Sequence record: MH494197.1
DNA length: 64,000 nt
Reading direction: 5' to 3' (one strand)
Source: Escherichia phage CMSTMSU
The number at the start of each line of letters is the position of its first letter. Position 1 is the stretch's first letter. The notes under the pieces were generated by a model. The model was not told the origin of the DNA and searched no databases. It was given only the letters and a program-made list of their open reading frames with translations. Of this stretch, positions 24,111-63,615 are shown in pieces. The position numbers and the translations under genes are program-made.

Positions 24111-24130
24111 ATATATTCCTTTATATTTGG

Positions 24131-24146
24131 AAAGATTAATCCGCCG
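24131..24146 (-). promoter_or_regulatory. intercistronic hairpin between nrdA and nrdB
   Basis: ATCCGC-CGAA-GCGGAT stem-loop between the nrdA stop (24161) and the nrdB RBS. Confidence 0.35.
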
Positions 24147-24160
24147 AAGCGGATCTTTAA

Positions 24161-26471
24161 TTAGATCTTACAACTATCACAATCACCTTCATCTAAGTCA
24201 GGTAGTGTAGGTAACACAAACTGTCCAGATTCTGGTTTTGCAGCTTCTTTTAGTACTTTCTCAACATCCACTTCATCAGAACCATCATTAGTATTATGAT
24301 AGTACAGATTTTTCAAACCAACTTTGTATGCATACATTAGTTCAGTTAGTAGTGTTGACATTGGCAACTTACCATCAGGAAGTGTGCTGGATTGTAACTG
24401 GTATTCACACTAATACTTTGGTCAATGTATTTCTGAAGAACACCACAGATTTGTAGATAACCGATGTTATCTTTCTGATCCCATAGTAAATCATATTTGT
24501 TTTTCAACTTATTGATTTCAGGAACGACTTGTTTAAGAATACCATCTTTAGATAGTTTCTTAGTTACAAGTGAACGAGGTTTCTCAATACCATTAGTACT
24601 GTTACTGATTTGTGCACTAGTTTCTGCTGGCATCAGTGCCATAGTTGTTGCGTTACGAATACCATATTGTTTGATATCCTGACGCAATGTTTCCCAATCT
24701 TGTTTTAGTTCAGGAGATACCAACGCATCAATATCTTCTTTATAGGTATCAATTGGTAGAATACCTTTAGCATATTTTAGTGTGTCAAAACCTTCACACT
24801 TACCTTTCTCTTTAGCAAGCTGTACAGAAGATTTAATTAGATAATAAGACCATGCTTCAGCCCACTCGTTAACTGTTTCCAATGCAGCTTCATTGTAACG
24901 CAAACCACGTTTAGCAAGGAAGTATGCAAAGTTAATGATACCAACACCTAATGGGCGATACATTTTAGTTGCACGGTCAGCATGAACTACTGGGTAGTCT
25001 TGATAATCCAATAGAGAATCAAGAGCACGTACAGAAAGATCACATGCAGTTTCCATATCTTCTGGACGATCAAAGTTGCCCCAGTTGATTGCACTCAAAG
25101 TACATAGACTAATCAAACCTTCACCAGTATTAATATCATCAAATGGCACAGATGGTAGTGCGATTTCTTGACACAAGTTGGATTGTTCAATTGGTGCAAT
25201 TGATTCAATAAAGGTTGAGTGTGTGTTTGCATGGTCAATGTTTTGAATATAGATACGACCAGTTTCTGCACGCTCAGTCATTAGAGTACTGAATACTTCA
25301 ACAGCAGATACAGATTTTTACGAATGCTTGGGTCAGCTTCATACTTCTTGTATAGCTTTTCAAATTCTTTTGGTTAGAACAGAATGCTTCATATAGTCCG
25401 GAACTTCATTAGGACTAAAGAATGTAATATTCTTGCCATCAACTAAACGTTGATATAGTGTTTTGTTCACTTGGAAACAATAGTCAAGTTGTCGAACACG
25501 GTTGAACTCAGTGCCTTTGTTATTTTTCAGTACTACAAGATTGTCAAATTCCAAATGCCACAATGGGAAGTGGACGGTTGCTGCACCACCACGTACACCA
25601 CCTTGAGAGCAGCTTTTAACGGTCTTAGCAGTTGATGCAATGAAAGGAATCAAACCAGTGTGTACTGCATCACCTGAACGAATCTCGAGTCCAGAGCACG
25701 AATGCGGCCCATATTGATACCAAGTCCAGCTTTACGGGAAATATAACGTAGGATAGCGTGGTTAGAAGAACCAATACTATCTAGACTATCTCCAACGTTT
25801 AGTACTACACAAGAACTAAACTGACGTGTATTGGTACGTAGACCAGCCATGATAGGAGTCGGGAGACTGATATCAAAGTTACTAACAGCATCATAAAACT
25901 TCTTAACATAAGACATACGTACAGAGCGATCATACTCCATAAAGATGATTGCTGCAATGGTCATATATGCCATTTGTGGAGTTTCGTAGATTTTCTTAGT
26001 TACGCGATTCTTATATAGATACTTTCCTTCCCACTGACGCATAGCAACATAAGTGAATTTATCATCACGTTTATGTTTGATGTAACGTCCAAGCTCTTCA
26101 ATTTCTTGAAGTGTGTATTTCTCAAGAATTTCTGGATCATAGATTTTTGTATCTACCATTTCTTGTAGATGTGCAGTGTATTTGATAGGGTCATAGTCGC
26201 CATACACTTGCTTACGGATACTATAATTTAGTAAGCGACCAGCAACGTATTGGTAGTTTGGTGTATCTTCAGAAATAAGTTCTGCTGCTGATTTAATCAG
26301 AATATCATGAATAGTATTGGTTTCAATACCTTCAAAGAATTGAAGTTGTGCACGAATTTCAATTTCGGAAACAGATACACCACTCAGCCCTTCGGCAGCA
26401 AAAATAAAATTTGATGGATCTTATCCAAAGATAACGGTTCTTTTTTCCATTACGCTTGGTTACGTTAATCA
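24161..26471 (-). CDS. nrdA: ribonucleotide reductase large subunit NrdA, frameshifted
   Basis: N-terminal MINVTKRNGKKEPLSLDKI, GRIYIQNIDHANTHSTF, SNLCQEIALP, C-terminal DEGDCDSCKI; fragments 25650..26207, 25360..25653, 24346..25281, 24161..24367. Confidence 0.9.
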
Positions 26472-59758: not shown

Positions 59759-60082
59759 CTATAGCAAGTCGTTTTCCATATCGTCAAGAACAGAATCAAC
59801 GATGTTCGCTGCTATCTTCTTAGGCATCTTGAACCACTCGGTGTTAGGTTGCCTTACTGCGTTCATTTGTTTTAGTCTTTTGTGAATTTCTTTCTCTGCT
59901 AAACGTGCATCTTCAAAGTGTACTTCATGGTATACCACAAAATCTCTAAAAGGTGTAGCAGTTTGATATGTCCTTAAACGCTCTGTCATTTCAGATTTAC
60001 TGGTAAATCCTATCTTAACATAATCAGGCCATGCATCATTTACTATAACATAACATATCTGTGACATAGAAAATATCTCCAT
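59759..60082 (-). CDS. T5orf172-domain protein (GIY-YIG-like)
   Basis: CYVIVNDAWPDYVKIGFTS...RLRTYQTATPF...EWFKMP is the typical T5orf172 pattern. Confidence 0.55.
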   Translation of the reverse strand: MEIFSMSQICYVIVNDAWPDYVKIGFTSKSEMTERLRTYQTATPFRDFVVYHEVHFEDARLAEKEIHKRLKQMNAVRQPNTEWFKMPKKIAANIVDSVLDDMENDLL

Positions 60083-60559: not shown

Positions 60560-61732
60560 TTACATGAAAGTAACGTTTTTGATAGCGATTTTGCTGTAGT
60601 AGTCAGCAGCGTTACCAAGAGATGAAGTACTATCAGTCAATTGTACATAACCATAACGAGTGAGGAAGGTTGTGACCAATTCACCAGTGTTAGGGTCCAT
60701 TACAGTACCGGAAGCCATTAGTGGGATGTATGGGCAATAGAACACACCAGCATCAGTTTCAGCGTTACCTTTGTAACCAATTAGGATATCTTCAACATCA
60801 CTTGCATAGGTATCAACGAAGATACGCATGGTGCTGTTTAGAGTACCAACAAATTTAACGTTAGTTGGAGCTTCGAAAGTACCTTCAGTAGTACGTGCAA
60901 AACTAGAAGTAGTTGCAGACTGTAGAATGGTTAGAGCGGTTGGAGAAACAACAGCCCAGTTCGCAGCACCACGTTTGGTACGACGAGCAACTTCGTTCGC
61001 TTGACGGTTGATTAGGGTAGCTAGAGCAGCGTGCTCGTCACCAACGAAGGTCGCAACACCAGTAACTTTAGATTGGTCATAAGTTACAGCAGCAGCACCG
61101 TAGTGCACGTAGACGGCTTAGTAGCTCTTGGTCGATTTCAACGGTAACTTCTTGAGCGATTGCAGCCATTAGTTCAGCTTCAACGTCGATACCATGTTGG
61201 GATTGTGCATCTTGTGCAGATTCAACAGTCCAACGTGCAGATAGACGACGAGATTTCGCTTCAACAGTTTCACGTAGAATACGGATGTTAACGCGACGAC
61301 CCATAGTACCTTCTAGTTGGCTAGTAGGAGCAGCTTGTGGGTTGCTGTTGTCTGCGTTTAGGTCACCAGTATAAGACTTAGCGATTTTGTATGGAGAAAG
61401 CATTTCTTCACCAGCGATAACACCGGAGCGTTGTCAGCATATTGAACACGTAGGGTGTGGATCTGACCAACTGGGCCAGTCATTGGCTGAACACCGATGA
61501 TTTCGTTAGCGATTACGGTTGGCATAACACGACGCATAATTGGTAGAATCACTTTGTTTAGAGTAGCGATGTTACCAGCAGTGGTTGCACCAGAAGTAGC
61601 AGATTCGTTTAGCATTAGTTTACGATGGTTATCAAGTACGGTTTCCATTACGGACTTACGAGTACCTTGTAGACCTTCAACTAGTTTCTCTTTAACTGCT
61701 ACCCATTTGGATTCATTTAGTAGTTGTGACAT
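60560..61732 (-). CDS. gp23: major capsid protein (T4 gp23-like), frameshifted
   Basis: VIANEIIGVQPMTGPVGQIHTLRVQY matches the T4 gp23 IAFDICGVQPMNSPTGQVFALRAVY region; three fragments; late-gene codon usage. Confidence 0.85.
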
Positions 61733-61803: not shown

Positions 61804-62931
61804 TTAAAATGCTTTAAAATGTTTATTTTTATTGATACCAGAAAGAACATCGAGTTCTTTTAGGAATGCCATATCGTCAGCGGTCATTTCTTCGCTTTCA
61901 ACAATAGCCTGACGGTTGCCAGTGATTACTTTACCTTCTGCAAGAGTTCTCTTAGCGGAAGACTGAACTGCTTGACGAGTGGTAGCAGATTCATTTACTT
62001 TAGTACCGTTAAGTACTGACTTATGGTACTTGCTGAAATCGTCTTTAAGCTTTTCTGTAGGAGAAGTAGCTAGAAGGGATTCCATAATTTGTTTCTGTTG
62101 TGTAGTTAGTGGCTTAACTAGTTCAGACATAATCGCATTACGAGCTTGTGAATCTTCCATAATACGTAGTTTGGTTTTAGCAGCTTTAACTTCACTTACA
62201 GTTTCATTTAGTTCTTTCTTAACTTGAGCAATTTCGTCTTCTTTAGACTTGATTGATTCAGTTAGGGAACGTAGTAGTGAATTCTCATTAAATTGTTTGA
62301 CATTAAACTCTTGAGCAAATGCTTCAAAGATTTTACGACCAAACATATTTTGTTTTGCTTCAACAAGATCTTCTTTCAAAGCGTATAGGTTTTTCTGAGT
62401 AGTTTCTGCAATATATTTAGCAGCACTTTCAGATGTACGTTTGATGAAGTTGTTACGTGCTTCAGCAATTTGACGGAGCCTTCAGCTAGTTTAACGCGAG
62501 TTTCAACTAGTTGACGTTTCTCGATGTGGAATTCTTTTAGCTCTTCTGCTAGGATACCGTTAGAGAAATTAACGAATTTATCCATGCATTCTTGAAGATG
62601 CTTACGTTCTTTACGCATTTGTTTAACTTCTTCAGCCAAAACAGAGTTAGAAAACGCAGAGAAATTACTTAGGGTTTTGCGGAGAGTTACACGATCTTCT
62701 ACAAGACGTTTTTCTCTTCATATACTGCACCCATTTCTTCAGCGATAACTTGAGTAACCATAGTATTTAGACCTTCGGTTAGCTCAGACAAATCTTGTTT
62801 GTAGCGGCCTTTCATTTCTTCACGCATTTCTGCGGCAAGTGTGTTTTTTCTTCATTCCATGCTTCCTGAATTAGCTGTTTTGCCTCATCAGAAAGAGATG
62901 ATTCTTTTAGAAGCTTTTCTAATTTAGACAT
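61804..62931 (-). CDS. gp22: prohead scaffold protein (T4 gp22-like), frameshifted
   Basis: coiled-coil-like Glu/Lys-rich protein between protease and capsid genes; AAGGAGAG RBS before ATG at 62929-62931. Confidence 0.55.
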
Positions 62932-62986: not shown

Positions 62987-63105
62987 TTTTTAAAATGTTA
63001 ACCTTTTAATTTCTTGAAAAAATCGTAAATTTCAGAATCTACATTATTTACTGTTTTAGATTCTGTGATTTTTTAGGACTATTACAAGGTGATCCGTACT
63101 ACTCA

Positions 63106-63615
63106 TCAGAGATTCAAAACCGCAGTAGGGTATGCCTCTGGAGCACTAGGTTGAGCAACAATATCAATTGTGATAATTTCAAAATCAGAAACTATTCCAT
63201 TGTAATCCACGTTACCGGAACCACGAGAACTTACACCAAGTTTCACACCAGCTTCTAGCATTTTACGAATATTAGTACCATGAGCAGTATCAAGTAGTTT
63301 GATTTCTGCCATGCCGTTAGCACCTTCCATCCAGACCTTAGTAATCATTGCTGCTACACGGTCAAGGTTAATTGTTAGTGTTTCAGGGTGGTCACATTCA
63401 ACTAGAATACTTTCACCTTTAGCCAAACGTTGAGCCATATTATTAACAGCTTTAGTAATTTCGGCTAAAGGGTAAATTCTCTCATTTAAATTTCTTTGAT
63501 CGGCTTGAATAGCAATACCACGAAGATAGCAATCACGCCCACCAAGTCCATTATCACGATGTTCCAAAACAACTTTAGAATCATTGAATGAAGACCATTC
63601 ACGAATCATACTCAT
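63106..63615 (-). CDS. gp21: prohead core protease (T4 gp21-like)
   Basis: intact 169-aa ORF; GVKLGVSSRGSG matches the T4 gp21 GWIPGVSSRGLGS active-site region. Confidence 0.8.
   Translation of the reverse strand: MSMIREWSSFNDSKVVLEHRDNGLGGRDCYLRGIAIQADQRNLNERIYPLAEITKAVNNMAQRLAKGESILVECDHPETLTINLDRVAAMITKVWMEGANGMAEIKLLDTAHGTNIRKMLEAGVKLGVSSRGSGNVDYNGIVSDFEIITIDIVAQPSAPEAYPTAVLNL

Follow-up and report, generated by a model that had tools for sequence, protein, structure and literature searches.

The major capsid protein gene of the Escherichia phage CMSTMSU (record MH494197.1) raises the question of why its product is so short. Within the stretch of 64,000 nucleotides analyzed here (hereafter the window), the first-pass annotation had placed a gp23-like gene of only about 390 codons at positions 60560–61732, and it offered two explanations for the difference from T4: either the insertion domain or propeptide of T4 is missing from the capsid protein, or frameshifts caused a portion of the gene to be overlooked. 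The boundaries of the gene proved to be exact, and the product comprises 391 aa after repair of the reading frame. As argued below, it is very likely that the locus is a full-length, single-copy major capsid gene of the Asteriusvirus type encoding a 391-aa product of the gp23 family, and that the frameshifts interrupting it are sequencing errors.

As read from the window, the gene extends on the minus strand from an ATG at 61732–61730 to a TAA at 60562–60560 and is made up of three overlapping ORFs in the ORF list (61732–61358, 61403–61077, and 61108–60560). When the repaired protein is compared with the window by tblastn, it maps to frames −1/−3/−1, i.e., the first and the last ORF pieces lie in one frame. 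A three-way DNA alignment with the phages fEgEco12 and PBECO4 reveals only two gaps inside the capsid gene. The first is a 1-nt deletion in the context GCTCC[T]GGTGTT, which shifts the frame at codon 103/104, and the second is a 2-nt deletion in the context CTAC[CT]GGTGCT, which brings back the original frame at codon 211/212. The features of the locus are collected in Table 1.

Table 1. Coordinates of the features at the capsid locus (numbering of the window).
Feature	Position	Strand	Details and basis
gp23-family major capsid protein gene	61732..60560	minus	1173 nt as given; 1176 nt (391 aa) with three bases restored
Shine–Dalgarno sequence AAGGAG	61744-61739	minus	6 nt upstream of the capsid ATG; read directly
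Predicted N-terminal propeptide, residues 1–43, ending L41-N42-E43	61604..61732	minus	motif alignment
E-loop/insertion-domain remnant, residues 99–147	61293..61438	minus	alignment gap, model
Lesion 1	61423..61426	minus	CCGG vs. CCTGG in relatives; T lost between 61425 and 61424
Lesion 2	61098..61100	minus	CGG vs. CCTGG in relatives; CT lost between 61100 and 61099
Terminator-like hairpin 3′ of the capsid gene	60517-60499	minus	damaged by homopolymer deletions in comparison with relatives
Putative scaffolding protein gene, gp22 position (fEgEco12 g349, 371 aa)	61823..62931	minus	4 frameshifting indels in the window
Prohead protease gene, T4 gp21 family (Peptidase_S77)	62998..63615	minus	PF03420, E about 1e-20; truncated by 3 frameshifting indels

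Both fEgEco12 and PBECO4 carry the homologous gene as an unbroken ORF of 1176 nt (391 aa) annotated as the major capsid or head protein, and the three-way alignment shows that its start and stop are those of the window gene. The repaired translation of the window is 100% identical to the fEgEco12 protein XBS49432.1, without any amino-acid change, and differs from the PBECO4 protein in five residues.

Both lesions in the capsid gene destroy a CCTGG sequence, that is, the Dcm motif CCWGG. The entire 64-kb window contains no CCWGG site, as compared with about 41.5 matches expected from shuffles and with 46 sites in the collinear 66 kb of fEgEco12, whereas GATC counts in the two stretches are alike (109 vs. 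108). At 44 of the 46 fEgEco12 sites, including those of capsid lesions 1 and 2 (reference sites 3048 and 3375, respectively), the window bears deletions of 1–3 nt, and the remaining two sites differ by substitution and not by deletion. Altogether, the window and fEgEco12 are separated by 299 indel events, all but one of which (298) are deletions in the window; by class, homopolymers of at least three bases account for 215, Dcm sites for 47, and other places for 36. Outside the indels, the DNA is approximately 98.5% identical to that of viable phages, and a part of the 36 other indels and of the substitutions (about 1%) may represent real strain differences.

It has been documented that the dominant errors of nanopore consensus sequences obtained from native enterobacterial DNA fall in the Dcm motifs CCAGG/CCTGG and, after these, in homopolymer length (Wick, Judd & Holt 2019, PMC6591954). 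The window matches both of these error classes and the deletion bias as well, with nearly every Dcm site affected. Because the deletions concentrate at CCWGG and in homopolymers, in agreement with the documented nanopore errors, the split ORFs are read as an artefact. Judged from this sequence evidence, the frameshifts in the capsid gene are products of sequencing and not of biology, and we infer from the error signature alone that they stem from an unpolished consensus of the nanopore type. Avoidance of EcoRII/Dcm sites was considered as a cause of the CCWGG lack and rejected: the relatives keep 46 sites, and the changes seen in the window are frameshifting deletions. Moreover, since 44 of the 46 Dcm motifs carry deletion errors, it is suggested that the sequenced phage DNA contained 5-methylcytosine at CCWGG, i.e., was Dcm-methylated.

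Two biological explanations of the broken gene should be weighed against these data. The first is that the frameshifts are real and mark the capsid gene as a pseudogene of a phage genome that is defective or undergoing decay. The window as given indeed cannot encode an intact capsid protein, and frameshifts are found in 32 of the 34 large genes, including those for DNA polymerase, terminase, RNR, topoisomerase, and helicases. However, genes broken to this extent are not biological because no viable phage could carry them and because neutral decay would not target CCWGG, where (along with homopolymers) the breaks cluster, almost all of them as deletions. The high identity to viable phages outside the indels and the restoration of the capsid protein without a single replacement also speak against decay, so that a pseudogene is extremely improbable. 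The second explanation is programmed ribosomal frameshifting or another kind of recoding that would join the three ORFs. In its favor, the second shift (−2 nt) makes up for the first (−1 nt), leaving the first and the last pieces in a common frame. Nevertheless, a slippery heptamer is absent at both sites, the close relatives all read through with CCTGG in both places, and like lesions occur in nearly every gene of the window; the probability of recoding is vanishingly small. Sequencing errors thus remain the preferred explanation, and it follows that, whenever a gene of the 64-kb window looks frameshifted, split, or "short", this should be weighed against a background of about one deletion per 215 bases. 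Other findings in the window that are based on broken ORFs are probably due to the same artefact.

Does the correction of these errors change the length of the protein? If the true capsid protein were of about 500 aa, like T4 gp23, the additional coding sequence would have to be hidden by the frameshifts or to lie upstream or downstream of the gene. Two frameshifts do exist, and in this respect the suspicion voiced in the first-pass annotation was justified, but they are not the cause of the short length, as their repair adds just 3 nt. The intact 391-aa ORF of the relatives has identical ends. Further, the ATG has a strong ribosome-binding site in front of it, and the ORF list of the window shows no in-frame start codon further upstream; the scaffold gene ends about 90 nt before the capsid gene, and a terminator-like hairpin follows the stop codon. 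Finally, the homologous proteins form at least 120 clusters with identities of 67–99% and lengths of 386–395 aa (one 409-aa entry excepted), and the capsid protein of phage 121Q has been published as a member of the T4 gp23 family with 391 residues and a mass of 42.2 kDa (Hua 2017, PMC5646251). A corrected product of about 500 aa, which the first-pass annotation had named as the refuting outcome, did not result; the corrected protein is the 391-aa one, and any hidden coding length is exceedingly unlikely.

By blastn, the region is 98.8–98.9% identical in DNA sequence to fEgEco12 and WPEC5 and 93.4% identical to PBECO4; a query coverage of at least 80% is reached by 73 records, and the jumbo coliphage genomes at 93–99% identity number 70 or more. 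From these identities, the source of the window is evidently an E. coli jumbo myovirus of the Asteriusvirus (121Q/PBECO4/fEgEco12) group. The gene, the 391-aa length of its product, and the neighborhood are the same as those of the Asteriusvirus major capsid protein genes (121Q, PBECO4, phAPEC6 Gp225, and fEgEco12). The sole difference is that the sequence of the window copy has two artefactual deletions at Dcm sites, amid about 300 deletion errors in the surrounding 64 kb. Many of the homologue clusters come from contigs of 300–360 kb (the largest being 361 kb), and the hosts of the corresponding phages include Escherichia, Klebsiella, Yersinia, Xanthomonas, and Vibrio, with further members derived from metagenomes. 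As judged by the homologue lengths, the shortness of the capsid protein is fixed in the RaK2-like jumbo clade.

No second copy of the capsid gene (the gene together with its flanks) was found within the 64-kb window. An initial blastn search had given two places per record, but the second place was not reproduced by the protein-level search. The codon bias of the capsid gene is extreme: CTA is used for 25 of 31 leucines, CGT for 19 of 21 arginines, and GGT for 24 of 26 glycines, and the GC content amounts to 44% vs. 37% in the DNA polymerase gene. CTA is a rare leucine codon in E. coli. tRNA genes that might explain the CTA-Leu bias were searched for in the window, and none was found.

The assignment of the repaired protein to the gp23 family is supported at several levels. 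It matches the Pfam family PF07068 (Gp23) with E = 9.5e-90 and 302.1 bits at a cut-off of 24.4, and PHROG 138 (major head protein) with E = 6e-98. In a phmmer search against PDB sequences, T4 gp23 chains were retrieved with E ~ 1e-39, the other match being arginine kinase at chance level (E = 0.82). No structure of a RaK2-like capsid was found in the PDB by sequence or fold search, T4 gp23 being the only sequence relative there; phiKp24, a candidate for such a structure, was discarded as its 597-aa capsid protein is unrelated. An AlphaFold2 model was built from a 36-sequence alignment and has a mean pLDDT of 69.6 and a pTM of 0.63, with values of 75–87 in the core blocks and below 50 in residues 40–72. 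When this model is searched with Foldseek, T4 gp23 chains occupy all of the top ranks (E = 2e-20, TM about 0.56–0.61), ahead of T4 gp24 (1e-10 to 4e-14) and then of other HK97-fold capsids. T4 gp23 (521 aa; PDB 5VF3, 6UZC, and 7VS5) and the phage protein share the Pfam family and an HK97-type core (P domain, spine helix, and A domain), as well as the L-x-E propeptide motif; in both cases there is also an S77 protease of the gp21 type, and the gene is directly preceded by a scaffold gene. The nearest aligned gp23-family protein from outside the RaK2-like clade is that of cyanophage Syn9, with 33–35% identity.

The T4 head contains a second protein of this type, gp24 (427 aa), and it should be considered whether the gene is a vertex (gp24-like) paralogue and not the gp23 orthologue. 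An alignment with gp24 can be obtained (21–22% identity, BLASTP E = 3e-07), but gp23 is far closer (34% identity over 235 aa, E = 2e-35), and the gene is found in the gp21-gp22-gp23 order. Besides, it is the sole gp23-like gene detected: tblastn of the repaired protein revealed no second gp23/gp24-like gene in the window at E ≤ 10, and in 50,697 phage records it gave, at E < 1e-5, 2,593 places in 2,590 records, nearly always one each. In the related genomes, no gp24-like vertex paralogue was detected at E < 1e-5, a threshold that a very divergent paralogue could escape, and the phAPEC6 study did not identify any vertex (penton) protein in silico (PMC7247149). According to the same study, phAPEC6 and 121Q have an identical capsid protein, which in phAPEC6 is the most abundant protein of the virion, with 1620 copies in a 10-Å map (PMC7247149). 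The vertex assignment is therefore very unlikely, and the gene is treated below as the gp23 orthologue.

With the length established, it remains to be asked where the 130 residues that distinguish the 391-aa protein from the 521-aa T4 gp23 have gone. Pairwise and multiple alignments place residues 42–114 opposite gp23 75–146. Immediately after this block, residues 115–146 (32 aa) stand opposite gp23 147–248 (102 aa) without similarity, which gives a deficit of about 70 residues. The break is located similarly by phmmer and BLASTP, from 114/137 to 147/148 of the phage protein (gp23 146/169 to 249/250), and the multiple alignment agrees. The other deficits are smaller and concern the propeptide (~22 aa), the mature N-terminus (~11 aa), a loop of the A domain (~14 aa, gp23 about 308–330), and the C-terminus (~14 aa); the listed deficits sum to match the overall difference. 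Thus, the alignment to T4 gp23 and gp24 after frame correction, which had been proposed as a check, places the main gap exactly where the insertion domain of gp23 is situated and gp23 nearer than gp24.

In T4, the I domain is a globular element inserted by long linkers at the position of the E-loop; it rests on the neighboring subunit and interlocks the capsomer (PMC9546572). In the AlphaFold2 model, residues 99–147 form the 49-residue tip of a hairpin between the strands 88–98 and 148–158, whereas the T4 counterpart of this tip comprises about 118 residues (132–249), i.e., two linkers and the globular I domain. The modeled tip consists mostly of coil with two 4-residue helices at a pLDDT of about 56–73, and structure prediction, also suggested in the first-pass annotation, hence reveals no folded domain in this place, although at such moderate model confidence the absence of a small folded element should not be taken as proven. 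Several positions of the tip (G108, E110, A111, P114, Y121, G123, L140–G142, and G145) are conserved in the clade according to the 36-sequence alignment. Since the remnant is well conserved across the clade, it is probably functional.

The protein is therefore shorter than T4 gp23 mainly since the globular insertion domain is absent and only linker-like sequence is left. Of the two losses proposed earlier, that of the insertion domain holds, while the propeptide is shortened but not absent: T4 gp23 possesses an I domain and a 65-aa propeptide, and the Asteriusvirus protein has no I domain and a predicted propeptide of 43 aa. Among gp23-like proteins, E-loop insertion domains of reduced or minimal size have been described before in the Sinorhizobium phages PhiM9 and PhiM12, and reduced domains also occur in cyanophage Syn9 (457 aa) and Salmonella phage Vi01 (440 aa); within the gp23 lineage, no other part varies as much as the I domain, which can shrink to a minimum (PMC4621102). 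Compared with these reduced-domain proteins, that of Asteriusvirus, at 391 aa, is even shorter, and the shell is much larger (T = 28 vs. T = 16 or 19).

The presence of a propeptide is predicted from a motif alignment. L41 and E43 are invariant columns of the multiple alignment and coincide with the L-T-E65|A site of T4/T2 gp23 and the L-R-E10|S site of gp24; none of the 36 sequences of the capsid alignment deviates at E43. If the protein is cut before S44, the calculated mass falls from 42.26 kDa for the precursor to 37.30 kDa for the 348-aa product, in agreement with the published behavior of the 121Q capsid protein, which migrates in SDS-PAGE at 37 kDa instead of 42.2 kDa (Hua 2017, PMC5646251). 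For RaK2 as well, the capsid protein was seen to run lower than expected from its calculated mass, and the authors of that study proposed cleavage (PMC3622015). From the motif alignment and the SDS-PAGE mass, we infer that a gp21-type protease would cleave at E43|S44.

The gene neighborhood is consistent with such processing. In fEgEco12 and PBECO4, the gene order is portal ... prohead protease–scaffold-position gene–capsid–small ORF–GIY-YIG-like–tail fiber–DNA polymerase. A gp21-gp22-gp23-type order (protease–scaffold–major capsid) is thus present, with the S77 protease gene two genes upstream of the capsid gene and the scaffold assigned from its position and from published annotation, phAPEC6 Gp226 being annotated as the scaffolding protein (PMC7247149). 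Pfam gave no match for the protein in the scaffold position, for fEgEco12 g347 (a structural protein encoded upstream), or for the small ORF that follows the capsid gene.

Two further observations concern the gene content around and beyond this locus. A small T5orf172/MUG113 (GIY-YIG-like) gene is located on the minus strand at 59759–60082, two genes downstream of the capsid gene; among the genes checked, just two, this one included, are free of frameshifts. It may represent an element of the homing-endonuclease type. At about 24121–24161, at the junction of the genes for the RNR large and beta subunits, a segment of fEgEco12 of about 790 bp is missing from the window. It contains g398, a hypothetical gene for 257 aa without a Pfam match, and this nrdA-nrdB presence/absence polymorphism may reflect a mobile gene.

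Taken with published cryo-EM data, these features outline a probable assembly pathway. The capsid protein would be made from a gene downstream of those for a gp21-like serine protease and a gp22-position scaffold, and it would assemble on the scaffold core. After removal of the 43-residue propeptide at L-N-E43|S44, the mature subunit would measure 348 aa (37.3 kDa), and 1620 copies of it would build a T = 28 shell that is covered by a lattice of separate decoration proteins, as seen in the 121Q and phAPEC6 reconstructions. For both of these phages, a T = 28 dextro capsid has been reported (PMC5646251, PMC7247149). In phAPEC6, the second layer is formed by an elongated decoration protein arranged in a hexagonal network (PMC7247149), and decoration proteins are considered likely in 121Q (PMC5646251). 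In contrast to the prolate T4 head (T = 13/Q = 20), the shell of the Asteriusvirus group is isometric with T = 28 (PMC5646251). The decoration lattice presumably reinforces the contacts between subunits, as the I domain and Soc do in T4.

Neither the capsid gene nor the error signature is new, each having been described in the literature. The biological weight of the short length is accordingly little: the 391-aa protein, its processing to about 37 kDa, the T = 28 capsid, and the variation or loss of the I domain have all been published. A broader and tentative reading, to which we assign somewhat less than an even chance, is that the RaK2/Asteriusvirus protein would represent a minimal subunit of the gp23 lineage, in which the I domain was lost or never gained and the conserved remnant at residues 99–147 would dock the lattice of decoration proteins that is visible at 10 Å on 121Q and phAPEC6. 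If this is true, the interlocking of capsomers in the T = 28 shell would be outsourced to accessory proteins.
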